A DNA stretch of 46,614 nucleotides from Fibrobacteria bacterium (GTDB lineage: Bacteria; Fibrobacterota; Fibrobacteria; UBA11236). Numbering within the stretch: position 1 is the stretch's first letter; each line of letters opens with the position of its first letter. Location of the stretch: positions 1 through 46,614 of the forward strand of contig JBGTHM010000007.1 of NCBI GenBank assembly GCA_041746255.1, given 5' to 3'. A program made the translations under genes and the position numbers. The notes beneath the pieces are model-generated. The model was not told the origin of the DNA. It was given only the letters and a program-made list of their open reading frames with translations, and did no database searches. Shown in pieces: positions 21,025 to 41,180 of this stretch.

Positions 21025-21933
21025 GTGAAAAAGGCTGAATTTCCCCTAAATCCAGGCGCCGGCCTGCGTGAAGCGCTCCATCGTGAAAGGCCTCTCCAGG
21101 TCGTTGGCGTGCCGAACGCCTTCTGCGCCCTCATGGCCAAAGACTCCGGTTTCCAGGCTCTCTACCTTTCCGGGGCGGGTGTGGCCAATATCTCCTACGG
21201 CCTACCCGATCTCGGCATGACCTCTCTGGACAACGTGCTGGAGGATTGTCGGCGCATCAGGGGCGCGGTCGAGCTTCCCCTGTTGGTGGACGCCGATACC
21301 GGTTTCGGAACGGCTTTATCCCTGGCCCGCACGGTGCGGGAGCTGGAGCGGGCGGGTGCGGCGGGAATGCATATCGAAGACCAGGTCCAGGCGAAGCGCT
21401 GCGGACACCGCCCCGGCAAACAACTCGTCTCCGCCGGTGAAATGGTCGACCGCATCAAGGCCGCGGTCGACGCCCGGTCAAAGAGCGATTTCGTGATAAT
21501 GGCCCGCACCGACGCCCTCGCCGGAGAGGGGATGGACCGGGCGCTGGAGCGGGCCCGATCGTATGCCGCAGCCGGCGCCGACATGCTCTTCCCGGAAGCT
21601 GTAGCAACCCTGGATCAGTACCGGGACTTCGCGGCCTTGGGCCTTCCGGTATTGGCCAACATCACCGAATTCGGGCAAACCCCGCTTTTCACCCGCGAAG
21701 AATTGGAAGGGGCCGGCATAGACCTCATCCTCCATCCCCTCACCGCCGCCCGCGCCATGCACCAGGCGGCATCCGAGATTTATCGTCTTCTGCGTCAAAA
21801 GGGTACGCAAAAAGACGCCCTGAAAAAGTTGCAAACCCGCGAAGAGTTGTACCGACTCCTGGATTATTCCGCCTATGAAAGCAAACTGGATGCGTTGTTT
21901 AGAAATGATGCTTCCGGGGATGGGAAAAAGTAG
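21025..21933 (+). CDS. prpB: 2-methylisocitrate lyase
   Basis: [45 protein letters not shown]. Confidence 0.96.
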
Positions 21934-21970
21934 GTTAAGGAAAAGCAGGCGAAAGCATAGGGAGGTCGGT

Positions 21971-23110
21971 ATGAAGGAAACGAAAACGGCGAAAAAACCG
22001 AAGACCGGCGGACTGGCGGGCATTGTAGCCGGCGACTCCGCGATTTGCACCGTCGGCTTGGAAGGCCAAGGCCTTACCTATCGCGGATATTCCATCCACG
22101 ACTTGGCCGAGCGCAGTAATTTCGAAGAGGTGGCTTGGCTGCTGACCCGGGGCGAATTGCCCACCCCCGGCGAGTTTAAAATCTATCGCGCGCGCCTTGC
22201 GACTTTGCGGGATTTACCCGGTTCTCTCAAAGAAATTTTGATTCGTCTTCCGATGGACGCCCATCCCATGGATGTGATTCGAACCGGCTGCTCCATGCTG
22301 GGATGCCTGGAACCCGAAAGCGAAACCAATCCCGGTTGGCAAGTAGCCGATAGGCTCATCGCCTGTGTTCCGAGCATGATTCTCTATTGGTGGCAGCACC
22401 ACCACGGAGGCCTGATGCCCGCCTTGGAAGAAAGGGTGGGTTCTACCGCGCACTTTTTCCTGAAGGGATTGAGCGGCAAAGCGCCCTCGGAAAGCGCCAC
22501 CCGTTGCCTGGACGTTTCGCTCATGCTCTATGCCGAACATGAATTCAACGCCTCCACTTTTACAGCGCGGACCATAGCGAGCACTCTCTCCGATTTTTAT
22601 TCCGCCGTTACCGGCGCCATCGGCGCTTTGCGGGGACCATTGCATGGCGGCGCCAATGAAGCCGCCATGGACCTCATAGAAAAATTCCGTGACCCGGAAG
22701 CTGCCGAAGCGGGATTGCGAGCGAGTTTAAAGAAAAAAGAGAAGATTATGGGGTTTGGGCATCGCGTCTATACGGTTTCGGATCCCCGGTCCGACATCAT
22801 CAAGCAATGGGCGGCGCGTCTGGCCCAGGAAACCGGCGACAAGGTCCTATTCCCCGTCTCGGAGCGTATCGAAAAGGTGATGTGGGATGAGAAGGAGCTT
22901 TTTCCCAACCTTGATTTCTACAGTGCCGCGGCCTATCACTTCTGCGGAATACCCACCTCCCTATTCACTCCGCTATTCGCGATAGCGCGCTTGGCCGGAT
23001 GGTCCGCGCATATTCTGGAGCAAAGGAGCGACAACAAGCTGATACGCCCCGTGAGTAACTATGTGGGACCCACCCAAAGGGAGTACACTTTCATTTCAGA
23101 AAGACGATGA
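21971..23110 (+). CDS. prpC: 2-methylcitrate synthase
   Basis: YAEHEFNASTF, GPLHGGANE, GFGHRVY, FPNLDFY. GGAGG RBS before ATG 21971. Lies between prpB and prpD. Confidence 0.94.
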   Translation: MKETKTAKKPKTGGLAGIVAGDSAICTVGLEGQGLTYRGYSIHDLAERSNFEEVAWLLTRGELPTPGEFKIYRARLATLRDLPGSLKEILIRLPMDAHPMDVIRTGCSMLGCLEPESETNPGWQVADRLIACVPSMILYWWQHHHGGLMPALEERVGSTAHFFLKGLSGKAPSESATRCLDVSLMLYAEHEFNASTFTARTIASTLSDFYSAVTGAIGALRGPLHGGANEAAMDLIEKFRDPEAAEAGLRASLKKKEKIMGFGHRVYTVSDPRSDIIKQWAARLAQETGDKVLFPVSERIEKVMWDEKELFPNLDFYSAAAYHFCGIPTSLFTPLFAIARLAGWSAHILEQRSDNKLIRPVSNYVGPTQREYTFISERR

Positions 23111-23117
23111 CGCGCGC

Positions 23118-24569
23118 ATGAATCCGTCCCATGACGATTCCCCGCTCCCACGCCGCGACGATATACTCTTAAGACTTGCCGATTATGTCGCCGACTATCA
23201 GGAACCTTCGCAGGAAGCCTGGAAAACGGCGAGACTTTGTCTGTCGGATAGTCTGGGGTGCGCGATGCTCGCTCTGAATCACCCCGAATGCATGCGTATG
23301 CTCGGACCCATCGTACCCGAGTCCCATACTTTGGAGGGAACGCCGATTCCGGGAACTGGGTTCAGGCTCGACCCCGTCGCCGCCGCCTTCAATATCGGCA
23401 CGCTTATCCGCTGGCTCGACTTCAACGATACCTTTCTTGCGTCCGAGTGGGGCCACCCTTCCGACAATCTGGGAGCGCTGCTGGCCATAGCCGATAATCG
23501 CAGTCGACGTGAAACCGCCGCAGGCCGCGAACCTTTCCGCGTGCGCGACTTATTACTCTCCCTCATCAAAGCCTATGAAATCCAAGGTGTTTTATCCCTG
23601 CAGAACAGCCTGAACCGGGAAGGTTTCGATCACGTCCTGTTCGTAAAGGCGGCTTCGGCGGCGGTGGCAACGCAAATACTGGGAGGTACCCGGGACAACA
23701 TCGCAGACGCCCTCTCCCAAGCCTTTATCGACGGAGGCAGCCTACGCGCCTATCGGCACGCGCCCAACACCGGCTCGCGTAAATCCTGGGCCGCCGGCGA
23801 TGCCTCTGCGCGCGGCCTGTGGCTGGCATTGATAACCCTGCGCGGGGAAATGGGGTATCCAGCCGCCTTAAGCGCACCCCACTGGGGCTTTAACGATGTT
23901 GTCCTTTCGGGCAAACCTCTGGCTCTCGATCAGAACCCCGGATGCTACGTCATGGAAAACATTCTTTTCAAAATAGCCTTCCCCGCGGAATTTCATGCGC
24001 AAACGGCAGTAGAATGTGCTTTCGCTCTGCACCCCCGGGTTCATCAGCGTCTTGAGGAAATCGACCGAATCGAAATCCATACCCAGGAATCGGCGAAACG
24101 TATCATTGACAAGACGGGACCCTTGCATAATCCCGCCGACCGCGATCATTGTCTCCAATATATGGTGGCCATCGGCCTGCTTTTCGGAAAGCTCACCGCC
24201 GACCATTACAGCGGGGAAACAGCGAAGGATCCCCGAATCGATGCGCTCCGCGATAAGATGCGGGTCGAGGAGGATCCCCGCTATTCCCGCGATTACCTGA
24301 ATCCAAAAAAACGCTCCATTGCCAACGCTGTTCAGGTATTTTTTCGCGATGGTTCAAGCACCGAAAAGGTGGAGATTGAATATCCCCTGGGGCATCGGAG
24401 GCGTCGGCAAGAGGCCCTGGATCCCTTGCAGCTGAAATTGGAAAACAACATCTCCTCCCGTTTTCACCCCGAAAAAACCCATCAAATCATTAACCTTTTC
24501 CATGATGCCGCGCGACTCGAGGATAAGCCCGTTTGTGAATTACTGGACTTATTCCAGCACGACGCGTAG
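23118..24569 (+). CDS. prpD: 2-methylcitrate dehydratase (MmgE/PrpD)
   Basis: RWLDFNDTFLASEWGHPSDN, YRHAPNTGSRKSWAAGDA, PAEFHAQTA, DRDHCLQY. Confidence 0.96.
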   Translation: MNPSHDDSPLPRRDDILLRLADYVADYQEPSQEAWKTARLCLSDSLGCAMLALNHPECMRMLGPIVPESHTLEGTPIPGTGFRLDPVAAAFNIGTLIRWLDFNDTFLASEWGHPSDNLGALLAIADNRSRRETAAGREPFRVRDLLLSLIKAYEIQGVLSLQNSLNREGFDHVLFVKAASAAVATQILGGTRDNIADALSQAFIDGGSLRAYRHAPNTGSRKSWAAGDASARGLWLALITLRGEMGYPAALSAPHWGFNDVVLSGKPLALDQNPGCYVMENILFKIAFPAEFHAQTAVECAFALHPRVHQRLEEIDRIEIHTQESAKRIIDKTGPLHNPADRDHCLQYMVAIGLLFGKLTADHYSGETAKDPRIDALRDKMRVEEDPRYSRDYLNPKKRSIANAVQVFFRDGSSTEKVEIEYPLGHRRRRQEALDPLQLKLENNISSRFHPEKTHQIINLFHDAARLEDKPVCELLDLFQHDA

Positions 24570-24590
24570 CGAAAGCCCAAGCAAGTATCT

Positions 24591-24617
24591 TGGACACCTC
24601 TGTCCACCCCCTTGACG
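24591..24617. promoter_or_regulatory. Putative upstream activating sequence for a sigma54 activator
   Basis: TGTCCA-CCCCC-TTGACG at 24601-24617, preceded by a half-site TGGACA at 24591-24596. Same motif as at 29494-29528. Confidence 0.6.
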
Positions 24618-24711
24618 GCATGGCTTGGCCAACCCGTTCCTTTCGGGAGTTTTCCGGGATAATCGGGGTGAGACCACCCCGCTACCGTCCGTGCTTTTCT
24701 TGATTCGGGGT

Positions 24712-24727
24712 TGGCCCGACTTTTGAT
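24712..24727 (+). promoter_or_regulatory. Putative sigma54 (-24/-12) promoter, non-canonical -12
   Basis: TGGCCCGACTTTTGAT versus consensus TGGCACG-N4-TTGCW. About 100 bp downstream of the palindrome. Confidence 0.5.
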
Positions 24728-24804
24728 TAGCTCTCCTTACAACCTTTGGCGTGAACCTTTTCCTTGGGTTCCGGCGGGGGGAAATTCCAAAACCAGGAGG
24801 ATTT

Positions 24805-25359
24805 ATGTTCACATCTTTATTCAAACGATCCCGCGTCGGCTGGCTGGGTACGGCCTTTTTGCTTCCCTTGGCCGCCCAGGCCGGCGATTACGGACATGCC
24901 CAAATCACGGTGGGCTTTCCGAACGGCCACATATCCGTGGGAAATACCTGGGGACATCCCCAACCCGTAGTGGCGGAAAATCATTACCACAACGACCATT
25001 GCAACAGGGTGGAGGAAAGGGTTACGGTGATCCACCATGCTCCTCCCGTCAGACATGTGGTGGTGCATCAACCCGCTCCGGTTAGACACGTCGTTGTGCA
25101 CCGGGCTCCGCCTGTGAAACACGTTGTCGTGCATCGTAATCCGCCGGCGCGCAAGGTGGTGGTAGTGGAAAAACACCATCACCATCGAGAAAAGGTGGTG
25201 ATACATCACAAATCGGACCACAAACGTAAGCACCACGGTGAGCGCGACGGGGGCTATAATAAGCACGACTCAAAGCACCATGATTCCCGACATCATGGCA
25301 AACAGGAACGCGGCCAAAAACACCAGCGCCAGTCGCATTTTGCCAGTGCGCATCGCTGA
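24805..25359 (+). CDS. Secreted His-rich repeat protein
   Basis: AGGAGG RBS and ATG 24805. Signal peptide ending in AAQA. 11-aa repeats and a His/Lys-rich tail. Confidence 0.8.
   Translation: MFTSLFKRSRVGWLGTAFLLPLAAQAGDYGHAQITVGFPNGHISVGNTWGHPQPVVAENHYHNDHCNRVEERVTVIHHAPPVRHVVVHQPAPVRHVVVHRAPPVKHVVVHRNPPARKVVVVEKHHHHREKVVIHHKSDHKRKHHGERDGGYNKHDSKHHDSRHHGKQERGQKHQRQSHFASAHR
25015..25170 (+). repeat. 33-bp in-frame tandem repeats
   Basis: ERVTVIHHAPP / VRHVVVHQPAP / VRHVVVHRAPP / VKHVVVHRNPP / ARKVVVVE. Confidence 0.85.
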
Positions 25360-25375
25360 ACGAAGCATTATTCCG

Positions 25376-25406
25376 TGCCGGGCCGGATCCTACTCCGGAC
25401 CCGGTA
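25376..25406 (+). terminator. GC-rich hairpin between the His-rich gene and the kinase (possible leaky terminator)
   Basis: TGCCGGG-CCGGA-(TCCTAC)-TCCGG-A-CCCGGTA followed by TTCCATTTTG. Confidence 0.5.
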
Positions 25407-25435
25407 TTCCATTTTGCTAGTTTAAAGACCATCTT

Positions 25436-27979
25436 ATGCCCGGAGCACTTCATTCCATTTTGAAATTCTTCCCGTTGATTCCGCGCTTAAGCGTTACAGC
25501 CTTTGCGGCTATCCTTTTTTCCCACGCCCCTGCTCGGACCGGCACTGCCCACGCCGACATCCCAGATATTCGCGACGCTTATGGCGTAGCGATAGCCGAT
25601 TTCAACCAGAACGGGCTGCCCGATATTTACCTGGTCGGATTCCGCACTTTAAATCGCCTACTCATCAACGAGGGTGAAGGTGTCTTTCGGGATCGGTCCA
25701 TTTCGGCGGGAGTGGGAGGCAATCTCATGCCACAGGGCATACGCAACCTGGAATTGGGAGCCAGTGCCGTTGATTTCGACAATGACGGTAAAGTGGATTT
25801 GCTCATCTGCGGATGGGGCGAATCGCTGGATCTCCTACACAATCAAGGTGATGGCACCTTCCGCTCCGTCACCAAAAAAATGGGCCTCCGACACAACCTC
25901 GACGCCAACATGGGAATCTGGGGCGATCTCGATGGCGACGGCTTCCCTGATCTGCTGCTGACCAATGAAACCGGCCCCATGCGCCTTTACCGCAACGACA
26001 AAGGCGTGCGCTTGATTTCCATTTCTCTCGATTCTGCGGGGTTGGCATCCGATTCCGGTTCTCAAGGCGCGCTGTTTGCCGACTTCAACTTGAATGGACG
26101 CCTCGACCTCGCTATTTCCGGATGGAAACATCCTCTCCGGCTATACGAGCAGGTTGCGCCCTTTCGATTCCGTCCCATCCCCGTCGATTTACCCGATAGC
26201 ATCGATGTACGCACCAATGCCATCCTTCCGGGTGACATCGACAATGACGGCGATGTGGATTTCCTGGTTACCGTGCGCCATGGACGGGATTGGCTTTTCG
26301 TCAATCAATTGAACCCATCCAAACAAGCCGCTTCGCCTTCCGCCTGGAATCTTCCTCCCAAATCCGCCTTCTTCTTTGAAAGGGGGTTGGAGTGGGGGTT
26401 GAGCGATTCGTTGGATAGCTACGGCGGCGCATTCGCCGACTTCAAGGGCGATGGTCGGCTTGACTTGGTGGTTACCAGCCGCGGTCCCATCGTCTTTTTC
26501 AAGAACTCGGGAAATGGATTCCACCGGCGTCCTTTGGAAGAAGTGGGGATTTCCAATCCCAGCTCCAGCTACAATACCGGCTTCATGTTCGCCGATTTGC
26601 TGCCCGCTCCCGGCTATGAAATGGTATTCGCCTCGCGCGACAGTTCCAGTTCGGTGCAACCCGGACCCATGCCGCGAAAACGCATGATCGAAGTGAAGTT
26701 AAAGGGCGTGCGATCCAATTCGCACGCCGTAGGAGCGCATCTCAGCCTTTGGGAGAGACACCTCGGGGCAACCAAAGAGTTGCCCTGGGATCTCAAGCAA
26801 AGCCTGCAAGTTCACGGGAACCATGGATATCTCAGCTCCTATCTCGGCAGCTATTTTTTTGCTGCCGACGGAGACACCAGCCGCGATCTCCGGGTGCGCG
26901 TACAATTTCCTTCCGGCAAGGTAGTGGTGCGCAGGGTCCCTCCGGATTCCACCAAAAGTGTGGTTGTCGAGGTCCATGAAAGCGGAGTGGTAGCGGCGCT
27001 ATGGGCCCGGGGCCTGCGCGTTGCCTACCAAAGCGCGCGCGATCCCCAGCGTCGGCGATTTATTTTCCTGGCCCTGATTGGAGTCATCCTTACGGGAATC
27101 GTATTACGGGCTTCGGCTCGCGCCATGGCGCGCAGCATGGCCCGCAAACATTACACGCAGGAGCTGGAAACCAAAAACGCCGAGTTACGGCAATTATTGG
27201 AAGAATTGAGCCACACGCAGCGGCAATTGATCCATAGCGAAAAAATGGCCGGCCTTGGTCAATTGGTGGCCGGTATCGCCCATGAACTCAACAATCCCAT
27301 CGGCTTCATTTACGCCAACTTGCACCAAATCCAGAAATATCTGGATCGGCTGCAATTTCGTGAAGGTCAATCCGGCAAAGTCTCGGACAACAGTTCCGAA
27401 GACAATTTGAACAAGGCGCAACTCGCCCTGAAGGAAAGCCAGGAAGGCGCTGTACGCATCCGCGACATCGTACAGAACCTTTGGGGGATATCGCGCCGCG
27501 GCAGCGGCGACCCCGCCCGTCCCTTGCAGAAAAAATCTTCGGACCTTAACCGCCTGCTCGAAAAAAGCCTGCTTTTGGCTCGCACCAATTTCAGTAAAAA
27601 CATCGTTGTGGAGAAAAATCTCGGCCGCCTCCCTTCGGTCCTGGTGGATGAAACGCAAATCCAACAGGTTTTCTTGAATATCCTGGTGAACGCAGGCCAG
27701 GCATTGGGCGAGAAGGGGCGCATCACGATCATTACCGGCATTGAGGAAGACGACGTCACTGTATCCCTACGCGATAACGGTCCCGGAATCGATGCGGAAA
27801 ACCGGGATCGTATTTTCGAGCCTTTCTTCACCACCAAACCCGTGGGCCAGGGAATCGGCCTGGGCCTGCATATTTGCTATGAAATCATGAAAGCCCACGG
27901 CGGATCCATTACCGCGCAACCGGCTCCTGGCGGTGGCGCGGAATTTTTGATAAAGTTACCGAGGGAGAAAAAAGGATGA
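25436..27979 (+). CDS. Sensor histidine kinase with CRTAC1-like ectodomain (FG-GAP/VCBS repeats + ASPIC/UnbV)
   Basis: Six clear DxxxxGxxD blades and one degenerate seventh, UnbV-like [14 protein letters not shown]...GYLSS...VQFPSG, one TM helix, coiled coil, H-box [11 protein letters not shown]1/F/G2 boxes. Confidence 0.88.
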
Positions 27980-29454
27980 ACGCGAAACCCGTGGTACTTA
28001 TCGTCGACGACGAGCCCGCCATCATCAGCAGCATAACGCGGGCTCTCGAAGAGGATTACCAATGCGTGGGAGCCCTGAATGCGGAAGAGGGACGCAAAGC
28101 CTTCGACGGCCGGCCTATCACTTGCGTACTAAGCGATCAGCGCATGCCGGGCGAATCGGGATCCGATTTTCTCGCCTGGGTACGGGAAAAGCACCCCGAT
28201 ACCATCCGCATTCTCATCACGGGCTATTCCGAATTCGACTCGCTGGTATCGGCCGTGAATAAAGGCCAGATTTTCCATTTCCTCCATAAGCCCTGGGAGC
28301 CCTTCGAGCTGGAGCTTATCGTCAAGCAAGCCGCGCGCGTGCATGGATTGGCTCAAGAGAATAAGCGATTGGAAGAGGCCCTGCGGGAACGCAATCGCGC
28401 GCTGGAACGCGAAAACCTGGAGCTCAAAGTCGACACCATCAAAGAACATGAAACCTTCCAGAAACTGGTAGGCTTAAGCGAATCGATGTTGCTGCTCAAA
28501 AAGAAAGTGCAAACCCTGCTTCCCTCGCAATCCACGGTTTTGATAACGGGAGAATCGGGTACCGGCAAGGAATTGGTGGCGCGCGCCCTGCACTTCGCGG
28601 GCTCCCGGCAGGACAAACCCTTCGTGGCCCAGAACTGCGCGGCCCTGCCCGACTCCATTCTGGAAAGCGAACTTTTCGGACATGTGAAAGGCGCCTTCAC
28701 GCATGCCGTGGACAATCGTCTGGGCATCATCGAAAGCGCCCAAGGCGGCACGCTTTTTCTCGACGAGGTGGGCGACATGTCGCTTTCCATGCAGGCGAAG
28801 TTGTTGCGTTTTCTCCAGGAAGGCACGCTCACCCAGGTCGGCGGACGCGTAGAGCGGAAAGTGGATGTGCGCGTCATCGCCGCGACGCATCGGAACCTCG
28901 AAGCCATGGTGGAAGACAAAACCTTTCGTGAGGATCTTTTCTACCGGCTCAACGTCATACCTCTGCACACACCGCCTTTGAGGGAGCGACCCGAAGACAT
29001 TCCCCTTTTGTGCGAGCACTTTCTCCACAAGCATGGCGCCAAATTGAAACGCGCCACTTCCCGATTGAGCCCGACCGCGCTAGACGCTTTGCGCGCCTAC
29101 CCCTTTCCCGGCAATGTGCGCGAATTGGAAAACGCGGTGGAATACGCGCTCAACATTTCGGGGGATAAGGTCGAGATTCAGCTTGAAGATTTACCCGAGA
29201 AGCTGCTACGGGGAAACGGCACACCGGTCGGATTGACTTCCAACCCACGCACCCTCCCCAAGGGAGAATTGCCGAATATCACCCTGGAACAGGCGATATC
29301 CGCGCTGGAAACGGATTGGATCGAAAAGGCGTTGGAATCGACCGCCGGCAATATTTCCCAAGCCGCGAAAATGTTGGGCCTCAGCCGCCAGGGTTTACAT
29401 AACAAACTCGCCAAATACGGCATACGGGATTCGGATCCCAAAATACCGGAATAG
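27976..29454 (+). CDS. Sigma54-dependent response regulator (NtrC/AtoC/ZraR family)
   Basis: Receiver (VDDE, SDQRMPG, KPW), AAA+ domain (GESGTGKE, ESELFGH, GAFTHA, FLDEVG, FREDLFYRL, PGNVRELEN), Fis-type HTH. ATGA overlap with the kinase stop. Confidence 0.95.
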   Translation: MNAKPVVLIVDDEPAIISSITRALEEDYQCVGALNAEEGRKAFDGRPITCVLSDQRMPGESGSDFLAWVREKHPDTIRILITGYSEFDSLVSAVNKGQIFHFLHKPWEPFELELIVKQAARVHGLAQENKRLEEALRERNRALERENLELKVDTIKEHETFQKLVGLSESMLLLKKKVQTLLPSQSTVLITGESGTGKELVARALHFAGSRQDKPFVAQNCAALPDSILESELFGHVKGAFTHAVDNRLGIIESAQGGTLFLDEVGDMSLSMQAKLLRFLQEGTLTQVGGRVERKVDVRVIAATHRNLEAMVEDKTFREDLFYRLNVIPLHTPPLRERPEDIPLLCEHFLHKHGAKLKRATSRLSPTALDALRAYPFPGNVRELENAVEYALNISGDKVEIQLEDLPEKLLRGNGTPVGLTSNPRTLPKGELPNITLEQAISALETDWIEKALESTAGNISQAAKMLGLSRQGLHNKLAKYGIRDSDPKIPE

Positions 29455-29493
29455 CCGGAGGCCGCCCTTGCGTCCAGCTTCTAGGCCTTTTCC

Positions 29494-29528
29494 CGTCCAT
29501 AAATTGGACACCGCCCATTTAGTGGACA
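29494..29528. promoter_or_regulatory. Tandem palindromic upstream activating sequences
   Basis: CGTCCA-TAAAT-TGGACA (29494-29510) and CGCCCA-TTTAG-TGGACA (29512-29528). An additional half-site CGTCCA lies at 29471. Confidence 0.7.
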
Positions 29529-29600
29529 CTGATCAGCGCATTCCCCCTTGAAATAGGGCCATTTTCGCGCACCTGCGGGTTCCCAGGCTAACCAGGCATC

Positions 29601-29616
29601 CGGCACGCCTCTTGCA
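29601..29616 (+). promoter_or_regulatory. Sigma54 (-24/-12) promoter
   Basis: CGGCACGCCTCTTGCA is a near-perfect GGCACG-N4-TTGCA, ending 25 bp before the ATG at 29641. Confidence 0.85.
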
Positions 29617-29640
29617 TGTAATTTATTTAAACACTATGCA

Positions 29641-30318
29641 ATGAGGTGGATTGTGAAAACCTGTTTACCGACACCCCGGTCCCGACAAGCCGCCCTGCTG
29701 GGGCTGGCGGCCTTAGCCTTCAGCGGATGTTATACCAAACTGCATACGCGGTCCGAAATCGTACGCCATCACTACGGCTATATCCAGCCTCCCGCGGATC
29801 CGATGCTATACGAAGACAGCCTTTACAGCGACTCTTTGGCTGCAGCCGAAGAGGATAGCGTGGTGGTGCAAAACAAGCGTACCGTCGTGGTGCACGACTA
29901 TTACCATGTAGAACGCCCCAGAACCTATTGGGATTTTTCCTTGGGATTCTATTCCCCTCACTACCGAGACTATTACGGAGGGTACTACTGGTACGATCAT
30001 CCCCATTATTATTACCCGCGCCACGGGCGCTATTACCACGGTGGGCGTTATTACTACCCGCCTCGCGGCGGAAAGGGCGGCTCAGGAGGTACGGTAAGAC
30101 CGCCTTCCGATCCCAATTATAAATCGGACAAACGCCTTTTCAACAGTCCTCCTCCGCAGAACCAGCCGGGCAAGGGGAAACGCAGGCAGCCGCAAAGTTC
30201 TTCGCAAAATGAGCCGGCTCCGAAGTCTTCCTCTTCGTCCGCTCCTGCGGCGAGTGATTCGGAATCGGAAAATTCAAACGAAGGCAAGTCCGTACCAGCG
30301 CGGGGAAAAAGACGATGA
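29641..30318 (+). CDS. Tyr/His-rich lipoprotein with disordered C-terminus
   Basis: Lipobox FSGC-YT, YYGGYYWYDHPHYYYPRHGRYYHGGRYYY block, Ser/Pro/Lys-rich tail. Confidence 0.8.
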   Translation: MRWIVKTCLPTPRSRQAALLGLAALAFSGCYTKLHTRSEIVRHHYGYIQPPADPMLYEDSLYSDSLAAAEEDSVVVQNKRTVVVHDYYHVERPRTYWDFSLGFYSPHYRDYYGGYYWYDHPHYYYPRHGRYYHGGRYYYPPRGGKGGSGGTVRPPSDPNYKSDKRLFNSPPPQNQPGKGKRRQPQSSSQNEPAPKSSSSSAPAASDSESENSNEGKSVPARGKRR

Positions 30319-31487
30319 AAAGGATAACCATACAAAGTGGTATTAATCGGGCAGCCTGGATATTTTCGGCGGTAGCCTTGCTAACGGCGAATTCATGGGC
30401 CGAATCCGCGCCTTTCAATCTGGGGCGAGACCAGGATGTGGGAGCCCGCGCGCTGGGACTTGGCGGCGCATATACTGCGGTGGCGAACGACTTCACGGCG
30501 CTGTATTATAACCCGGCGGGATTGACGTCGGTGAAGCAACATGAATTGCATTTCAGCCTGCAACAGGACCGGCTCTCCGGGACCGGCCGCAGCGGGGGAT
30601 TTGCTCCGCATTCTTTGGAACAGCAGAATTTGAAAATCCAATCCCTGGGATATCTCGTTCCGGTACCGACCGTAAGAGGGGGCCTCAGCTTCGCATTCGG
30701 CATGTACAAACCCCGTACCTTCGACGAAGTGATTTCCTTCCGCGACGCGCAATCGGCAACGGTCGGACCTTATGAATACCGCGCCGCCGGGGATATGACT
30801 CATTACCGCGCCGGCATGGCCGTGGATATCGCGGAAGGCGTGGTACTGGGAGTGGCGGCCGGATATGTGCATGGCCGAGAGGAAGTACGCGTGGAAGACA
30901 ACGGTCGCTATGGATACCTCCGCACCTATGGAGGCTACAATTTGGAACCGGCGTTGCTGCTACGGCTCAACGACAACCTGCGCTTCGGCGCCTCGCTGGT
31001 AATCAAGGAGGCATTCGGTCTGGAAGAAGTATTCGAAGATGAAACCAGCAATTCGGAAGGCAATTACGTGGTCAAGCATCCCATGACCCTGAAAATGGGC
31101 CTGGCCCATTTCGGAAAATCCCACCTGCTCAGCCTTTCCTACAAAACGCATAATTGGGAAAATTATCGGTATGGAAGAAACGACGTCGAGTTCACCGATT
31201 TGGTTTCGTACCGTAACGAGCATGAATTGGCGGTAGGAGCGGAACAGTACATTCCGCTTATCGGAGGCGTGGTCCGGGGAGGGTATACCTATAACTTACT
31301 GCCGGATAAGGATTTCAATCCCGCCTATAATCGCCATCGGGTGGCGGGCGGGGTCGGTTTCATCATGGGCGGATCGCTGAGCTTGGATTTGGGATATTCA
31401 TTCAGTTTCTGGGAGTTGCAGGATGCCGATCTCTATCAAGAAAACCGTGAGCATCGGGCCATGATGTCGTTCGCGTATCGGTATTGA
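30315..31487 (+). CDS. Outer-membrane beta-barrel, OmpP1/FadL/TodX (PorV-like) family
   Basis: Signal peptide, GARALGLGGAYTAVANDFTALYYNPAGL signature, C-terminal aromatic FAYRY. ATGA coupling to the lipoprotein gene. Confidence 0.88.
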   Translation: MKRITIQSGINRAAWIFSAVALLTANSWAESAPFNLGRDQDVGARALGLGGAYTAVANDFTALYYNPAGLTSVKQHELHFSLQQDRLSGTGRSGGFAPHSLEQQNLKIQSLGYLVPVPTVRGGLSFAFGMYKPRTFDEVISFRDAQSATVGPYEYRAAGDMTHYRAGMAVDIAEGVVLGVAAGYVHGREEVRVEDNGRYGYLRTYGGYNLEPALLLRLNDNLRFGASLVIKEAFGLEEVFEDETSNSEGNYVVKHPMTLKMGLAHFGKSHLLSLSYKTHNWENYRYGRNDVEFTDLVSYRNEHELAVGAEQYIPLIGGVVRGGYTYNLLPDKDFNPAYNRHRVAGGVGFIMGGSLSLDLGYSFSFWELQDADLYQENREHRAMMSFAYRY

Positions 31488-31504
31488 TAGGTGGGGCACG
31501 GGTT

Positions 31505-31966
31505 TTAAAGCAGCCAGGATCCCCGGTGGCTTTGGCGTAAGCCCTTGTGGGTAAAAATCCACTCATATTCAACAAGCTTAGGCTGTATCCCGGAATTCCA
31601 GAGTATCAGGGCTCCGTGCTCATCCACCTCAATGCAGTTGAAGGTCAGGGTCTCTAAACCGGGAAAACGTTTACGAAGAGCGGTGACGACTTCCCATTCT
31701 TCCTTTTTATTCCACACGACCAGATGATCGCTTTTACAGGAAACGATTTCATGCTTTAATTGCCCTCGAACGGTTTCTTGTAAAAGGTACTGGCGTTGCA
31801 AGAACTCACTTTCGCGCATTCGGAAATAAAATTGATTTTGATTCCATCCGAAAATTTGAGCGCCAATTAAGATAGCCATGGAGGAGATTGTGAGCGCGGC
31901 CAGCAATTCCAGGAGTGTCAATCCTTTTTGGCCATCCGCATAGTCAATTTTAGCGCCTGAACTCAT
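31505..31966 (-). CDS. Prepilin-type minor (pseudo)pilin, GspJ/PilW-like
   Basis: Class III signal QKG|LTLLELL followed by a hydrophobic helix. Confidence 0.8.
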   Translation of the reverse strand: MSSGAKIDYADGQKGLTLLELLAALTISSMAILIGAQIFGWNQNQFYFRMRESEFLQRQYLLQETVRGQLKHEIVSCKSDHLVVWNKKEEWEVVTALRKRFPGLETLTFNCIEVDEHGALILWNSGIQPKLVEYEWIFTHKGLRQSHRGSWLL

Positions 31967-32361
31967 AAGCTACTTTTCCAAGTGGACGTCTTAGGCACTA
32001 GCGGACTCTTTCTCCCGAAATAGCTAATCGTCATACGTCCTAATGGCGGTCCAGACAAGCCCAATACTTTCCCTGACAGTTTTACCTCATCCCCGATAAG
32101 TTCGGGTTCGATTTCCACCCGGCAGCGACAAGGCACTTCGTACTCTTTGAAAATCGTTTTTTCTTCTCGTTGCAAAAAGGCGCGATGCAACTCGGTTTCA
32201 AGCAACGATAAAGCGCAAAACCGATTCAAAGCGCGCTGGTTGACGTGATTTTTATATAGCCAGGTACTCAATGGAACCAAAAAGGCGGTAGCCAACACCA
32301 TTGCGATTAAGGTTTCCACCAACGTGAAGCCTATTTGTTCAGAACGGATTTTCACTTCCAT
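31963..32361 (-). CDS. Prepilin-type minor (pseudo)pilin, GspI/PilV-like
   Basis: Class III signal QIG|FTLVETLIA. Confidence 0.82.
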   Translation of the reverse strand: MEVKIRSEQIGFTLVETLIAMVLATAFLVPLSTWLYKNHVNQRALNRFCALSLLETELHRAFLQREEKTIFKEYEVPCRCRVEIEPELIGDEVKLSGKVLGLSGPPLGRMTISYFGRKSPLVPKTSTWKSSL

Positions 32362-32457
32362 TTTTTGGAAAAAACCTTGATCATCGCGGTGCCCCTCTGT
32401 CCCGGCGATTTTGTAAGGATTGCTCCCGGTTCGTTTCCATGCTGAATCCCGGCTACC

Positions 32458-32907
32458 TCAATACCCGAGGATGAATTTGCGGCCTTCTTTCAACACAGTC
32501 ACCTGATGCCGTTCGATTTTCACCACTTTGAATTCCCAGGCTTCGTCCCCGCTTTTTAATAGCTCGCTTTTACCATTTACCTGAAGTATAGCTACCGGCT
32601 GCTCGCCCCATAAAATTCCGGTAAGTACCGCTTCAGGAGGCGCTATCACCTTCGGAACTTTCAGCACCGGCTTGGACATCGCCTTCGGCTTCGGCTTTTC
32701 ACTATAGAGAAAGGACTGAAAGGGATCCCGGATAAGCGAATCGGGGGATAAAAGGGATGCGGAAAGAAACTCTTTTGGTAAAGAGGATTTATCCGTTGTG
32801 GTTACTCGGGAGTCAGGACGACGAACGAGAACATCTACGACTTGCCATGCCACATAACCCCATGCGCCCAAAGCCATCATTAGCAGCGCCAAGAACAGCC
32901 TTTTCAT
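32458..32907 (-). CDS. PilP/GspC-like assembly protein
   Basis: N-terminal TM, RDPF motif, Pro/Lys linker, LTGILWG..PVAILQVNG...GD...VVKI homology region. Confidence 0.7.
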   Translation of the reverse strand: MKRLFLALLMMALGAWGYVAWQVVDVLVRRPDSRVTTTDKSSLPKEFLSASLLSPDSLIRDPFQSFLYSEKPKPKAMSKPVLKVPKVIAPPEAVLTGILWGEQPVAILQVNGKSELLKSGDEAWEFKVVKIERHQVTVLKEGRKFILGY

Positions 32908-33470
32908 GGAGTCACCGAATAGGACGGAAGAAAAACACTCACGCTGAAGCGGGCCGTAATATCATTGCGATGCATGGCTTCCGAATGGATGGAAAAACGT
33001 CTTACCCGCAGGACCATATCCTGGCTTTCCAACGCATGCATGTAGCGCACCAAGCTCGGAAAACCACCTCTAAGCGAGAGTTCGAAAGGATATTCCAGGG
33101 AAGTCGATTGCCGTATTTCGTTCAGACCGGTCACCTCAGTCAATATGATTTCTTCCCGCTTCGCCTGGTCCACCAGTAGATGCATCACATGGGATGCATG
33201 ATTTTCCTCCGGTGAGGATTGGTGAAAAGCTCGCAGCTTTTTCGACCAGTCTGCGTAATGTATCGCCAAACTATCGGATTGTTCCAGGTTTTTTTGAAGG
33301 GAGCGGAATGCCATGAAGTCCGCCACTTCGCCCATGGTCTGGCGGTAGCCATAAAATCCCACGTAAGAAATCCCGGAAACCGTCGCCAATCCAAATATCA
33401 ATAACAGTGAAAAAACCAGCTGTCCCCAATAGCGGAGCATCCAATCCGGCACCTCGAAAAAGGATTTCAA
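32904..33470 (-). CDS. pilO: PilO/GspM-like alignment protein
   Basis: TM helix, coiled coil and EYPFELSLRGGFPSLVRYMHALE. Confidence 0.72.
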   Translation of the reverse strand: MKSFFEVPDWMLRYWGQLVFSLLLIFGLATVSGISYVGFYGYRQTMGEVADFMAFRSLQKNLEQSDSLAIHYADWSKKLRAFHQSSPEENHASHVMHLLVDQAKREEIILTEVTGLNEIRQSTSLEYPFELSLRGGFPSLVRYMHALESQDMVLRVRRFSIHSEAMHRNDITARFSVSVFLPSYSVTP

Positions 33471-34882
33471 GGTTGCACCATGATTTGAAATGCGATCAAA
33501 TTCCGATTATTGTCCGGAATTTTGGTTTCCTTGACGACTTTATCGGCAGGTACCATTTCCGTGGAGCGAAGCTTGACGGACTTGAAACCGCCTTGACTTT
33601 CGAGGGCGGCCAGCAGCAAGGTGACGCTACTTTCTTCCAAACTGTATCCGCTCAGGGTATAGAGTGACGGTCCCGTTGCCTCTCGCTCTAAAGTCCAGCT
33701 TTTTAGCCATAGGCCCTCCGGAATTAGGTTGGCAATGCGTAAAAGGTTTCCTGATTCCAAAGTACGTTTATCAAACGTAGGTTTCAGCCGTTTCCATTCC
33801 GCCTCCGCGCTTTGTTTCTGTACTTGCACCCGTTGCCACTGTTGCAGTTGTCCTGAATGCGATTGAATATTGCCCCGGTTATAAAGATGCAATCCTCCGC
33901 TGAAAAGCCCTAGAGACAAGGCCAAAGCGGTTAGCGACGATATAGTCACGAGTGCAATGCGAAAAAGACGCTGGGAGCGGGCCAGCCAATTGCGGTGGGA
34001 GCGGGCTAAATCCCCATTCAGATTGGAAAGGGACAGAGGGGCAAGCTCCCCTCGTGCATGGCGATGCGCAAGGGCCGCGACGGGACGGAATTCAGAAGCC
34101 ACTAGCGTGAATTCGGGAAGCCAGGGAGGCGATAAGATGGCTAACCCGTCCTCCGAAAGCAAAGACAACGCTGCCTGCATCTCCGCACTAACGCCGTCCC
34201 GTCCAAGGTATATCGCCTGGATGGGGCTTTCCGGTGCTTTGGTTTCCCAAAAATAGATTAGAACATTCCGAAAAGCCCGCGCAAGGTCCGGTCCTCTTTC
34301 CCGGGCATCGTTTAGACCCATGTGAATCTTCGCATGGACGCGCAGGTTTCCGCGATGTAAAAATAAAATATGCGTCTCTTTCGGCTCGGGCCAAACCAAA
34401 ACACTGGTCTCAAGGAGAGCGTTTTTATCAATGGCATCAAGTACAGGTAAGGGGCCCAGCCCTAAATCATAGAGGGTCGAGAGTGAATGCGGCAATTCTT
34501 CCTGAAATTTTGAAAGTGCGGCCTCGCTGCAGATTACCGAAAAGCGCGCATCACTTAAAGGAAAAACCTGTATGGCGAAATCTTCGCTTCGGCTTCCTGG
34601 GAGTTTCAATTGCTCGAGATCGAATTCGTCTTCGTTCTCTCCTTCCAAAAAGGGTCCCATGTAACGTATTCGGTAAGGGATATGCGAAACCATAGAAGCG
34701 AAACCTTGGTAACGGAGGCCATGCTTCCGTGCAAAAATTTCGGCCTCGGCATAAGATCCCCTGAACGAAAGACCCGGCGCCAAAGACTTGTCGCGCGCCG
34801 AAAAGAGACGAACTTCATCGCTTAAAAATTCAGCGCCCCAGTGCCAACGAGGCGTAAACCAATCACTTATCCAGGTTGGCAT
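33467..34882 (-). CDS. PilM-PilN fusion / GspL-like alignment protein
   Basis: Cytoplasmic N-domain, TM helix, coiled coil and PilN-like IPEGLWLKS...LSGYS...LE.QGGF.SV. Operon context supports this. Confidence 0.68.
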   Translation of the reverse strand: MPTWISDWFTPRWHWGAEFLSDEVRLFSARDKSLAPGLSFRGSYAEAEIFARKHGLRYQGFASMVSHIPYRIRYMGPFLEGENEDEFDLEQLKLPGSRSEDFAIQVFPLSDARFSVICSEAALSKFQEELPHSLSTLYDLGLGPLPVLDAIDKNALLETSVLVWPEPKETHILFLHRGNLRVHAKIHMGLNDARERGPDLARAFRNVLIYFWETKAPESPIQAIYLGRDGVSAEMQAALSLLSEDGLAILSPPWLPEFTLVASEFRPVAALAHRHARGELAPLSLSNLNGDLARSHRNWLARSQRLFRIALVTISSLTALALSLGLFSGGLHLYNRGNIQSHSGQLQQWQRVQVQKQSAEAEWKRLKPTFDKRTLESGNLLRIANLIPEGLWLKSWTLEREATGPSLYTLSGYSLEESSVTLLLAALESQGGFKSVKLRSTEMVPADKVVKETKIPDNNRNLIAFQIMVQP

Positions 34883-37085
34883 TTTTCTTTATATAAGTGC
34901 CGGGTTCAACATGGGCATCGGCCCCGTAATACACGTGCGGAGTCACGAAAATAAGCATCTGACTGCGCGAATTGACGATATCGTTATTTTTAAAAAGCCA
35001 ACCCAGGAATGGAATCGACCCGAGAAAAGGCACTTGCCGCGAAACCCGGTTGCGACTCTCCTTGACGAATCCTCCTAAAACTATGGTCTCGCCGTCGCGG
35101 AGCCTCACTTTCGATTTAAGCATCCGGTGATTCAGCGTGGGAGGCACATTCGGATCGAACGACCCTTCCGGCTCGGAAAAGTCGGGCACGATTTCGCAAG
35201 TGATTTCGCCTTTCCCCGTTACAAACGGCGTAACGGTAAGAGTGACATTCGCCTCTATTTTTTCGAAGCGTTGGGTAGTACGGGTGGTAACTCCATCTAT
35301 TTTTCCGACATCCGTTTCGGATTTCAGCAGAAAATATTGTGTTTGCCCGATGCGCAATACCGCTTCGCTGCCGTTTAATGTGGCGATCTGCGGTTTGGAT
35401 CTGACTCGGAGCACCTTTTCCTGTTCCAAGGCTTCAATTTTGGCCACAAAATTACTGGGTAGTGAGATGACATTGCGCAAACCGGGTATTTGATCCAAAA
35501 TATCCTGGCTTCGTTCCCGGTTAAGAACCTGTTCAAATTCGGGATAGAGCGTTTCCCGGCTCTGCACTTTACGATAATCGCCTAAAAAAAGATCCATGCC
35601 ATAGCGGCGTATCTTGTCCAAATTGACATCGACGACCAGGGCTTCAATCAGAATTTGGGCGACGGGTAAATCCACCTGGTTCACATAGTGATTGAGGCCA
35701 TCGATGGTTTCATAAGTTCCCAATACCATGATTGCGTTTTGGCTTTTTACCAGTTTTAGCTGGGCGTTCTTTATCAAACTTTCGGGTAGTATCTCCATGA
35801 CCTCCTCTGCCTTCAAATGCTTGAGAACAATAAGCCGGGAGTTATCGGCGACTTGCATACTCTGGGGTCCGATAAAATAAATGCCGTTATTCACCCAGAA
35901 TGTGTAATCCGTGCCTCTGAAAAGGAACTGCAGGGCGCTTTCAATGGAAACGTCGTTGACCTTCATCGTGGAAGTGCCTAAAAGTTCTCCGTATACCACC
36001 GTGCTGATTCCCGACTGCGCCGCGATGGAAGCGATAATATCGGCAATGGGGGCCTGGGTTACTTCCAGCGAAACCTTATCCTCCTTTACGAATATGCGCA
36101 TACGGCCACCACCCTGGGCTCCAGATACTTGGGGAGCGGATTGCCACGACTCCTGCACCAAAGTAATGACACCGTCTTTTTCGCGCAGGAGGAAGCCGTT
36201 GTTATGCGCCAATAGGCGTATGGCTTTATCGAATTCAAGGTCTTGGAAAAAAGCCGTCATTTCTCCGCGCGCGCCCCCCTCTATCAAAAGCGTTCGCTTG
36301 GTCTCTTCCACCAATCTCCGCACCACCTGTTGCGCCGGAATATTCTGCAGGTCCACCGACAGCTTCCCTGATTTAAAACTCACTTCGAAGCGGGGCTTGA
36401 TGGGCGGTGGAGGAGCGGGTGCAGGTTTTTTCTCAACTTTGACCGACCCGTGCACGACATTCAGTCGATATCCGTTTTCCTCCGCGATCAGCTTCAACGC
36501 ATCCTTGAGTTTTGTTTTGTGTAAATTGATGCTGATACGGCCGCTCACCTCGGGAGACATGAGAATGTTGACCTTATGCTGTATTCCCAATCCCTGCAAT
36601 ACGTCGCGTATTTCGGTATCACGCACATTAAGTGATTGCACGATCACCGAGTCGTTGATGGGTAATTCCATCGCGAGTTCCTGTTCTACGGACGGTTGAA
36701 CCGTTCCTTGCTCTTCCGGTTCTCCCGATGGTTCCTGATATTGCTTTTGTTCCTGGTAAACCTGAGATTCCTGTGCTGCATGTGTATCATACGCCTCCGT
36801 GTTTTCAGGAATTTTCTCGTTTCCGGATTCATCAGTCTGGACCTCCGCCGTAAAGGGGCTATCGTTGCCGGGGTCCGTCATTTGTTCCGAGGGTGGATTG
36901 GATGCGCGCCGCTGTTGACCCTCAATTGCCTGTAATCTTTCATGCCGCAAGGAGTCCCGGATAAAAGCTCTTCGCTCGGACGGAGAAAGTTGCGGATTCT
37001 CGCCTTGAGTTTGCGCTACGACCTCCGAAACCGAATTACCCAGAAGTAGCAGGAGGACTGTAACCACACCTGTAATCAGTTTCAC
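34863..37085 (-). CDS. gspD: Secretin (GspD/PilQ family) with several STN/N0-like domains
   Basis: QILIEALVVDV, PQIATLNGSEA, LRDGETIVLGG, VPFLGSIPFLGWLFK, LIFVTPHV. Confidence 0.9.
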   Translation of the reverse strand: MKLITGVVTVLLLLLGNSVSEVVAQTQGENPQLSPSERRAFIRDSLRHERLQAIEGQQRRASNPPSEQMTDPGNDSPFTAEVQTDESGNEKIPENTEAYDTHAAQESQVYQEQKQYQEPSGEPEEQGTVQPSVEQELAMELPINDSVIVQSLNVRDTEIRDVLQGLGIQHKVNILMSPEVSGRISINLHKTKLKDALKLIAEENGYRLNVVHGSVKVEKKPAPAPPPPIKPRFEVSFKSGKLSVDLQNIPAQQVVRRLVEETKRTLLIEGGARGEMTAFFQDLEFDKAIRLLAHNNGFLLREKDGVITLVQESWQSAPQVSGAQGGGRMRIFVKEDKVSLEVTQAPIADIIASIAAQSGISTVVYGELLGTSTMKVNDVSIESALQFLFRGTDYTFWVNNGIYFIGPQSMQVADNSRLIVLKHLKAEEVMEILPESLIKNAQLKLVKSQNAIMVLGTYETIDGLNHYVNQVDLPVAQILIEALVVDVNLDKIRRYGMDLFLGDYRKVQSRETLYPEFEQVLNRERSQDILDQIPGLRNVISLPSNFVAKIEALEQEKVLRVRSKPQIATLNGSEAVLRIGQTQYFLLKSETDVGKIDGVTTRTTQRFEKIEANVTLTVTPFVTGKGEITCEIVPDFSEPEGSFDPNVPPTLNHRMLKSKVRLRDGETIVLGGFVKESRNRVSRQVPFLGSIPFLGWLFKNNDIVNSRSQMLIFVTPHVYYGADAHVEPGTYIKKNANLDK

Positions 37086-37165
37086 TTTTTTAGCCCATCT
37101 TTTTCCGTGCGCAGCACTTAATATATTTTCTCAAAGGTAGCATTTCTAAATACCCGACTCGCTTC

Positions 37166-38893: not shown

Positions 38894-38898
38894 GGTGG

Positions 38899-41022: not shown

Positions 41023-41180
41023 TGTTTTACCACCTTGACGGGAAGTTAAAGATAGTAACTTGGGCCAGGGGGTAGGTAGGGGGAAGTTCTCCGGGATTGT
41101 TGAGCTTAAAAATTGTGATTTTTCTAAAATTCTGAAATAATTCAAGGCCGCTGCGCCAACCTGTACCTCAGGGAACCCTC

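Follow-up and report, generated by a model that had tools for sequence, protein, structure and literature searches.

What does a sigma-54-type two-component system control when it is flanked by genes for small exported proteins and an outer-membrane barrel, and what kind of cue would it read? The question is raised by a locus at positions 24,570 to 31,487 of contig JBGTHM010000007.1 (NCBI GenBank assembly GCA_041746255.1), which is contig C7 of a 4.59 Mb, metagenome-assembled genome of a Fibrobacteria bacterium. The window analysed here is the whole stretch formed by the first 46,614 nucleotides of this contig; labels beginning with L, C and G denote our loci, contigs and genomes. An earlier note on this DNA had proposed a self-contained sigma-54 regulon made of five co-directional genes, and the open reading frame (ORF) list of the window holds all five on the plus strand (24805-31487): a His-rich secreted protein, a sensor histidine kinase, an NtrC-type regulator, a Tyr-rich lipoprotein and a FadL-like barrel. 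Phylogenetic footprinting across 22 loci and the genome-wide rarity of the palindrome-promoter pair described below both support the regulon idea. We think it likely that the genes belong to a dedicated sigma-54 two-component regulon, found largely in one uncultured Fibrobacteria family, with remodelling of the outer membrane or cell surface as its most probable role. The circuit is standard NtrC-type logic fitted with undescribed sensor and output families, and the literature searched contained no description combining FG-GAP, histidine kinase and sigma-54; one paper listed there that joins Fibrobacterota with sigma-54 and two-component systems appears to be unrelated.

Palindromes, promoters and their conservation

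The palindrome YGTCCA-N5-TKGACR gives three strand-matches in the window where 0.04 are expected, a number reached by none of 100 shuffles, and the whole genome contains six sites. As had been claimed, it stands ahead of both flanking units, at the two places listed in Table 1 and nowhere else in the window. In site 1 an extra half-site, TGGACA at 24591, pairs inversely with the TGTCCA of the palindrome, which allows an alternative reading of the site as TGGAC-N6-GTCCA; this form has five sites in the genome, and only that of the window reads TGGACA-N4-TGTCCA. We preferred GTCCA-N5-TGGAC because it is the only one of the two conserved in relatives. The two -24/-12 elements that the earlier note had placed downstream are both sited about 100 bp on, the GG lying ~104 bp from the palindrome centre in the promoter of the S gene (pS) and ~100 bp in that of the Tyr-lipoprotein gene (pT), but only the second is canonical, as pS has GA at -12 and reads TTGAT in place of TTGC. 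A simple scan found no sigma-70-like promoter on the plus strand of 24400-31700, the simple sigma-70 and terminator scans returning fewer matches than shuffles, or no more than these. The sequencing sets listed for this DNA were contig sets from a single study, with no RNA set among them.

Table 1 Features of the locus, in window coordinates.
Feature	Position	Strand	Description
Upstream activator site 1	24591..24617		TGGACA-N4-TGTCCA overlapping TGTCCA-N5-TTGACG (palindrome 24601-24617)
Promoter pS, sigma-54-type	24712..24727	+	TGGCCCGACTTTTGAT, GG-N10-GA, non-canonical -12
S-family secreted protein, His-rich	24805..25359	+	Start taken as the ATG behind AGGAGG
Hairpin followed by U-rich stretch	25375..25407	+	Within the 76 nt that separate the S and kinase genes
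Sensor histidine kinase, 847 aa	25436..27979	+	FG-GAP propeller, weak UnbV/ASPIC, HisKA, HATPase_c
NtrC-family sigma-54 activator, 492 aa	27976..29454	+	Overlaps the kinase gene by 4 nt
Upstream activator site 2	29494..29528		CGTCCA-N5-TGGACA (29494-29510) and imperfect GCCCA-N5-TGGAC (29513-29527)
Promoter pT, canonical sigma-54	29601..29616	+	CGGCACGCCTCTTGCA, GG-N10-GC
Tyr-rich lipoprotein, 225 aa, 11% Tyr	29641..30318	+	Lipobox FSGC
FadL-family outer-membrane barrel B, 390 aa	30315..31487	+	Overlaps the Tyr-lipoprotein gene by 4 nt

Of 24 genomes sampled from the same family, 16 have an orthologue of the sensor part of the kinase (E <= 1e-146), as does one genome from a neighbouring family. 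When 201 genomes representing 21 of the phylum's families were sampled, matches at E <= 1e-30 were confined to this same family (14 of 21, plus the window's own genome). An unpublished genome, G021, is included in the 24-genome and 201-genome tallies and in the 31-genome tally given below, and one of its loci is among the scanned strict-motif matches; no claim depends on that genome alone. For comparison of the loci we used the window and 21 loci from Fibrobacteria metagenome-assembled genomes, found by a scan with one genome per species. The earlier note had named a lack of co-occurrence in relatives among the results that would refute it, and the genes do co-occur in relatives. The five-gene order of the window, however, proved to be a reduced form, as most relatives have an extra barrel and an extra small-protein gene. 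In the fullest layout, one unit encodes a small secreted protein (S1) followed by a FadL-like barrel (barrel A), a second encodes another small secreted protein (S2) followed by the kinase and the regulator, and a third encodes the Tyr-rich lipoprotein followed by barrel B. Barrel A is 28-34% identical to the window's barrel, whereas barrel B orthologues share 44-54% with it. The Tyr unit adjoins the regulator only in the window and L046, and lies 4-6 kb away in L032, L035, L040, L043 and L048. The genus of the window has no barrel A and keeps the S gene; in the window, the S2 position is occupied by an S1-type member, the His-rich protein.

Across the 22 loci there are 27 S-type promoters of the form TGG(C/T)C(C/T)(G/A)-N4-TTG(A/T)T, each 50-95 nt before an S gene, and they are present in all 19 loci with sequence upstream of the kinase unit (the remaining three begin at or inside that unit). 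The exact GG-N10 spacing and the TTG at -14 to -12 are kept in every one of them. With one mismatch allowed, a GTCCA-N5-TGGAC palindrome, or more than one, lies 40-260 bp upstream in 23 of the 27. The pT form, TGG(T/C)(A/C)(C/T)-N5-TTGC, is likewise kept in all seven Tyr-lipoprotein loci, always as GG-N10-GC, and follows two tandem palindromes 17-18 bp apart in five of these and a single palindrome in two.

In the window's genome, the genome-wide scan for palindrome plus promoter that the earlier note had suggested returned three pairs in 4.59 Mb, of which the two in the window flank the kinase-regulator pair. The third, at C39:14505 (minus strand; locus L051 5683-6678), is unlinked and precedes the gene of a DUF2807/GIN lipoprotein (E 5e-26), with a perfect TGTCCAGAATTTGGACA 76 bp (start to start) upstream of TGGCCCGGAATTTGAG; the DUF2807 lipoprotein gene has both motifs in five further genomes (L056, L057, L061, L077 and L080). 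The other five perfect GTCCA-N5-TGGAC sites of the genome all lie inside open frames of at least 300 codons, and none has a promoter of the scan pattern within 260 bp downstream. The genome also encodes rpoN (Sigma54_DBD, 207 bits, contig C92) and 13 strong sigma-54 activator domains.

Owing to the A, rather than C, at its -12 position, the sigma-54 dependence of pS is assumed from context, and it is by context only that we file it as a sigma-54-type promoter. It could be argued instead that TGGCCCG-N4-TTGAT is not a sigma-54 promoter, or that some other protein reads the palindrome, the regulator being linked to it by position only. This strict motif has 95 matches in 31 genomes of the family, against six for a reversed control. 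Nine of 30 sampled matches have a palindrome, and these belong to S genes, to the DUF2807 lipoprotein and, in one case, to a contig end; the other 21 have none, two of them preceding a sigma-70-family factor gene, and together with the A at -12 they speak for a link by position only. Such a link would nevertheless leave the GG-N10 spacing and TTG kept in all 27 S-type promoters to be explained, as well as the use of the same palindrome by canonical GG-N10-GC promoters in the same loci and the restriction of the motif pair, essentially, to the surroundings of the kinase-regulator pair and one conserved unlinked target, and we consider it highly improbable. In the two sigma-70 cases, L054 (G015:C5) and L060 (G011:C65), the TGGCCCG-N4-TTGAT element stands 29 nt ahead of the gene start, lacks an upstream palindrome, and is either the target of another activator or a chance occurrence.

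A propeller-bearing kinase and its regulator

The kinase matches FG-GAP_3 (E 3e-32), FG-GAP, HisKA and HATPase_c (E 3e-25) in Pfam. An N-terminal hydrophobic segment and a second one at residues ~545-568 enclose its FG-GAP beta-propeller part, so that ~500 residues are predicted to lie outside the cytoplasm. The orthologue alignment contains six invariant D-x-(D/N)-x-(D/N)-G-x-x-D loops, and loops of the D-x-D-x-D-G type are the calcium-binding signature of FG-GAP repeats. Searched against the PDB, the sensor profile had CRTAC1 (cartilage acidic protein 1, 9etn, E 1e-17) as its sole match, over residues 145-327 only. The FG-GAP half of the description of this protein as an FG-GAP/UnbV kinase is clear (E 3e-34), but the UnbV half is only weakly detectable in the window's protein, where UnbV_ASPIC reaches 14.3 bits against a cut-off of 23.4; at E <= 1 the family is matched, weakly, by 13 of 18 kinase orthologues (best 1.7e-5). 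The likeness to CRTAC1/ASPIC-UnbV proteins consists of an FG-GAP propeller with D-x-D-x-D-G loops followed by a weakly matching UnbV-like segment, whereas here the module would be the periplasmic input of a histidine kinase. The papers listed for CRTAC1, ASPIC and UnbV included nothing on kinases, and our reading would assign a signalling role to a widespread and so far functionless bacterial propeller.

A match of the kinase to T2SS_HK (195 bits against 450) covers the kinase core only. In the Atlas, a cluster of 179 proteins of ~857 aa combines UnbV_ASPIC, FG-GAP_3 and HATPase_c; we treat it as a lead only, from which the architecture may reach beyond this Fibrobacteria family. The commonest phylum on record for the cluster is Calditrichota (seven members with a record).

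The regulator carries Response_reg (E 8e-17), Sigma54_activat (E 1.8e-68), AAA_lid_14 and HTH_8 (E 1e-13) domains, that is, the receiver, AAA+ domain and C-terminal Fis-type helix-turn-helix that define the NtrC class. Like NtrBC, AtoSC and ZraSR, the system thus combines a sensor kinase with a regulator of this build, has dyad sites ~100 bp upstream of -24/-12 promoters and appears to be a small, self-contained regulon with probable autoregulation. It differs from them in that neither kinase nor regulator reaches the cut-off of any NCBIfam equivalog, in its CRTAC1-like FG-GAP propeller sensor, and in having a GAFTHA loop (see below), a TTGAT promoter class and uncharacterised output families.

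Secreted proteins and barrels

The window's S protein consists of a signal peptide, a beta-hairpin motif (GHAQITVGFPNGHISVGNTW), PxRHVVVH repeats and a basic, His-rich tail. Sequence comparison places S1 and S2 proteins in one family, in which the signal peptide is followed by the hairpin motif (Y)GHAE(I/V)T.G.P.G.VTVG..W, by P.R.V(T/V)V(I/V) repeats that differ in number and by a Gly/His/Tyr/Arg-rich tail. A profile search recovered 84 proteins, unnamed or annotated as 'hypothetical', with Fibrobacteria as the named sources; none of the 84 has a Pfam domain, and the window's protein matches no Pfam or NCBIfam family. Its AlphaFold2 (AF2) model, built from 87 aligned sequences, has a mean predicted local distance difference test (pLDDT) score of 53 and is confident only at the hairpin (residues 29-50, pLDDT 87-89).

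The His-richness of this protein had suggested an analogy with ZraP. The zraP-zraSR genes of E. coli and Salmonella, which serve in envelope or zinc stress, encode a sigma-54 two-component system beside a small exported protein that it induces, a layout resembling that found here, and at 17% His the window's protein could act as a periplasmic buffer in a Zn, Ni or Cu stress system of this kind. However, His accounts for 17% and 13% of residues in the window's genus and for only 4-10% in 21 family members outside it, and this genus-specific enrichment weakens the metal idea. The S proteins match no ZraP-type family, the kinase and regulator fall far below the ZraS (125 vs. 479 bits) and ZraR (294 vs. 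760) cut-offs, the sensor is a beta-propeller and not a ZraS-type domain, and the extra targets here are lipoproteins and FadL-like barrels. The analogy drawn in the earlier note is therefore weak, and we regard a metal stress system as very unlikely.

The C-terminal sequence (N/D/E)L(F/Y)...RP.R.RG, shared by each of the 11 S proteins that barrel A follows and by none of 12 others, might serve as a pairing motif for this barrel; as the genomes are related, the co-variation is a hint and not a statistical test. The S2-type proteins, which have no such barrel-linked motif, invite a different explanation, in which S proteins are not barrel cargo at all and instead act on the kinase in the periplasm, either modulating it by feedback or chaperoning it, much as CpxP does for CpxA or ZraP for ZraS, and bind its propeller through the hairpin. 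The hairpin is indeed conserved and confidently modelled, and an S gene directly precedes the kinase gene, overlapping or abutting it in three loci (L041, L044 and L050). Nevertheless, the S proteins resemble none of the CpxP, Spy and ZraP families in sequence, and the S1 genes are tightly linked to barrel A and not to the kinase; we consider feedback control rather unlikely, and for S2 it can coexist with the regulon proposed here.

The Tyr-rich lipoprotein has a core rich in Tyr and Arg, a KRLF...G.R motif and a Ser-rich tail whose last residues are KGRRR. Its best-conserved part is CYT(Q/K)L, just past the lipid Cys, and an invariant K-R-x-F...G-x-R stands at a place comparable to that of the C-terminal motif of S proteins. 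A word-based search with the single protein found only three proteins, and when 1.84 billion proteins were searched with its profile, only 31 representative clusters emerged. It matched nothing in Pfam or NCBIfam, and an Atlas search, in which recognition was low, returned unnamed clusters only, the closest named entries, DUF6600 (0.80) and YXWGXW-repeat (0.79), falling below lead level. The gene begins 24 nt past the 16-nt promoter element in the window (29616-29643) and only 12-13 nt past it in L032, L035, L043, L046 and L048, in all cases without a Shine-Dalgarno sequence, so these mRNAs would be nearly leaderless; the S genes, unlike the Tyr-lipoprotein genes, have strong AGGAGG sites.

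Barrel B, which has ~35 orthologues at 45-80% identity, gave a confident AF2 model (pLDDT 92.6) that in Foldseek matched FadL of E. coli (3pgs, template-modelling (TM) score 0.73), Bacteroides BamG (9hiv_F, 0.69) and TodX (0.68). As modelled, it qualifies as a FadL-type barrel with an N-terminal NPA hatch, the hatch motif YYNPAG being conserved (N66, A68 and G69 invariant, P67 nearly so). Against Pfam FadL it scores 24.0 bits where the cut-off is 29.7, and a precomputed table lists PF03349; in NCBIfam it stays below family level, with 41.6 bits against 250 for BamG, 37 against 90 for PorV_fam and 34 against 325 for PorV2.

With FadL as the best fold match and the YYNPAG hatch conserved, the barrels might simply be channels for fatty acids or aromatics, in an uptake regulon for a hydrophobic substrate induced by an AtoSC-like two-component system and with the small proteins as capture lids. 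The top NCBIfam matches include AtoS for the kinase core and AtoC for the regulator, and prpD and a gene presumed to be prpC lie just upstream in the window and in L003. The two matches are, however, far under their cut-offs (AtoS 166 vs. 646 bits, and confined to the kinase core; AtoC 412 vs. 714), the prp neighbourhood is common only to the window and the same-genus contig L003, the 16 further loci examined from relatives having yielded no match to it, and no catabolic gene was found with the palindrome-plus-promoter pair. Moreover, the window's genus keeps the S gene without its barrel, and the third target is a DUF2807 lipoprotein. We consider uptake unlikely.

Other FadL-like barrels handle proteins. 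One study (PMC12578637) describes BamG/BamH of Bacteroidota, in which the conserved N-terminus of a surface lipoprotein is wedged in the wall of a FadL-like barrel, and a paralogous barrel-lipoprotein pair, BamG2-BamH2, which forms an operon; PorV, of the type IX secretion system, is given there as a second barrel-cargo precedent. As in BamG-BamH, a FadL-fold barrel is encoded here beside a lipoprotein (TM 0.69, 17% identity to BamG), the two genes being linked by their 4-nt overlap, and the residues after the lipid Cys (CYTQL in the window) are likewise the best conserved. The likeness to BamG and PorV is at fold level only and an association of the partners is proposed here, between a barrel and low-complexity proteins unrelated to those of BamG or PorV, under a dedicated sensor. 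A complex prediction that combined residues 30-390 of barrel B and residues 30-225 of the Tyr-lipoprotein, its mature form, scored 0.28 and 0.05, against a mark of 0.32. As a more specific and tentative possibility, S1 with barrel A and the Tyr-lipoprotein with barrel B could form a two-partner surface module under the CRTAC1-like kinase, acting through the regulator with its GAFTHA loop and the -12 A promoter class, in which the barrel recognises a short C- or N-terminal motif of a disordered beta-strand-repeat protein and exports or displays it. If true, this would extend protein handling by FadL-like barrels past the BAM (beta-barrel assembly) and type IX secretion systems of Bacteroidota, and would provide a first function for bacterial CRTAC1/ASPIC-type propellers.

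The proposed circuit and its setting

In the regulon that we propose, an extracytoplasmic cue would act on the periplasmic, CRTAC1-like and Ca-loop-bearing beta-propeller of the kinase, which would then phosphorylate the NtrC-type regulator. Dimers of the regulator would bind GTCCA-N5-TGGAC palindromes, single or tandem, ~65-140 bp upstream of -24/-12 promoters and drive open-complex formation by the sigma-54 holoenzyme. The predicted targets begin with the S gene and, by read-through, the kinase-regulator operon, which would amount to positive autoregulation. The others are the Tyr-rich lipoprotein, along with the FadL-like barrel coupled to it in translation, and the unlinked DUF2807 lipoprotein; relatives would add another S protein and the paralogous barrel that belongs to it. 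Autoregulation of the kinase-regulator operon from the S promoter is probable, because the S2 and kinase genes overlap or abut in three loci and no other promoter is recognisable in the window. Each small low-complexity protein may have its cognate barrel as a partner, through which it would be anchored or displayed, or which would export it.

Several observations weigh against this proposal. Besides the A at -12 of the S-type promoters, four of the 27 have no recognisable palindrome (L036 at 8066, L038, L046 and L050 at 4255), and in L038 (6600-6700) and L046 (8200-8330) TGTACA repeats replace it. In L031 and L045, the regulator and kinase genes are not neighbours. At the loop that contacts sigma-54, the regulator has GAFTHA in place of the GAFTGA consensus (window 28669-28760, residues ~232-262). 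The hairpin between the S and kinase genes is strong (-31.6 kcal/mol, z -4.47; none of 200 shuffles folds as well) and may limit or block the read-through on which autoregulation would depend. On the output side, the S protein folds with low confidence outside its one hairpin, and the co-variation of the C-terminal motif with barrel A may go back to no more than two or three events in evolution.

The variant loop is a shared trait, as it reads GAFTHA or GSFTHA in all 17 regulator orthologues seen, with F and T kept. Among the 11 other activators that the same pattern recovers in the genome, seven have GAFTGA, three G(A/S)(F/Y)(T/S)GA and one GAFTSA, the Gly being kept in ten; the GAFTHA variant may accompany the TTGAT (-12 A) promoter class. 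The hairpin, possibly a leaky terminator or a stabiliser, is not picked up by the simple terminator scan. L038 and L046 are divergent genomes, and the Tyr promoter of L046 retains the usual palindrome.

If correct, the proposal provides an unusually clean, computationally defined regulon in an uncultured lineage, in which one binding site and two classes of promoter serve three to four predicted target operons, and the regulator, the promoter with its non-canonical -12 and the GAFTHA loop are directly testable in vitro. In Fibrobacterota, FadL-like barrels paired with small disordered proteins might form a device for surface display or export; barrel-lipoprotein complexes are central in the sister phylum, Bacteroidota. 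The regulatory logic is nonetheless that of an ordinary NtrC-type circuit.

The part of the window directly upstream of the locus, 21875-24569, contains the PrpD gene (MmgE/PrpD domains) and, before it, the ORF presumed to be prpC. On the other side, the minus strand of 31505-41145 carries two N-methyl (pseudopilin-type) genes followed by same-strand ORFs of 149-748 aa. The five ORFs nearest to the locus (31505-34882) were not found beside the kinase in relatives' loci, and a link to this downstream cluster was rejected, as the T2SS_HK match is confined to the kinase core and the pseudopilin genes were not found in those loci. By their titles, 19 of the 21 relative loci come from Fibrobacteria, Fibrobacteres or Fibrobacterota, one from an 'uncultured bacterium' and one, L030, from an 'uncultured Bifidobacteriales bacterium'. 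L030 belongs to the window's genus and has a kinase 74% identical to that of the window behind the same promoter and palindrome, and its Bifidobacteriales label is probably a binning or naming error.

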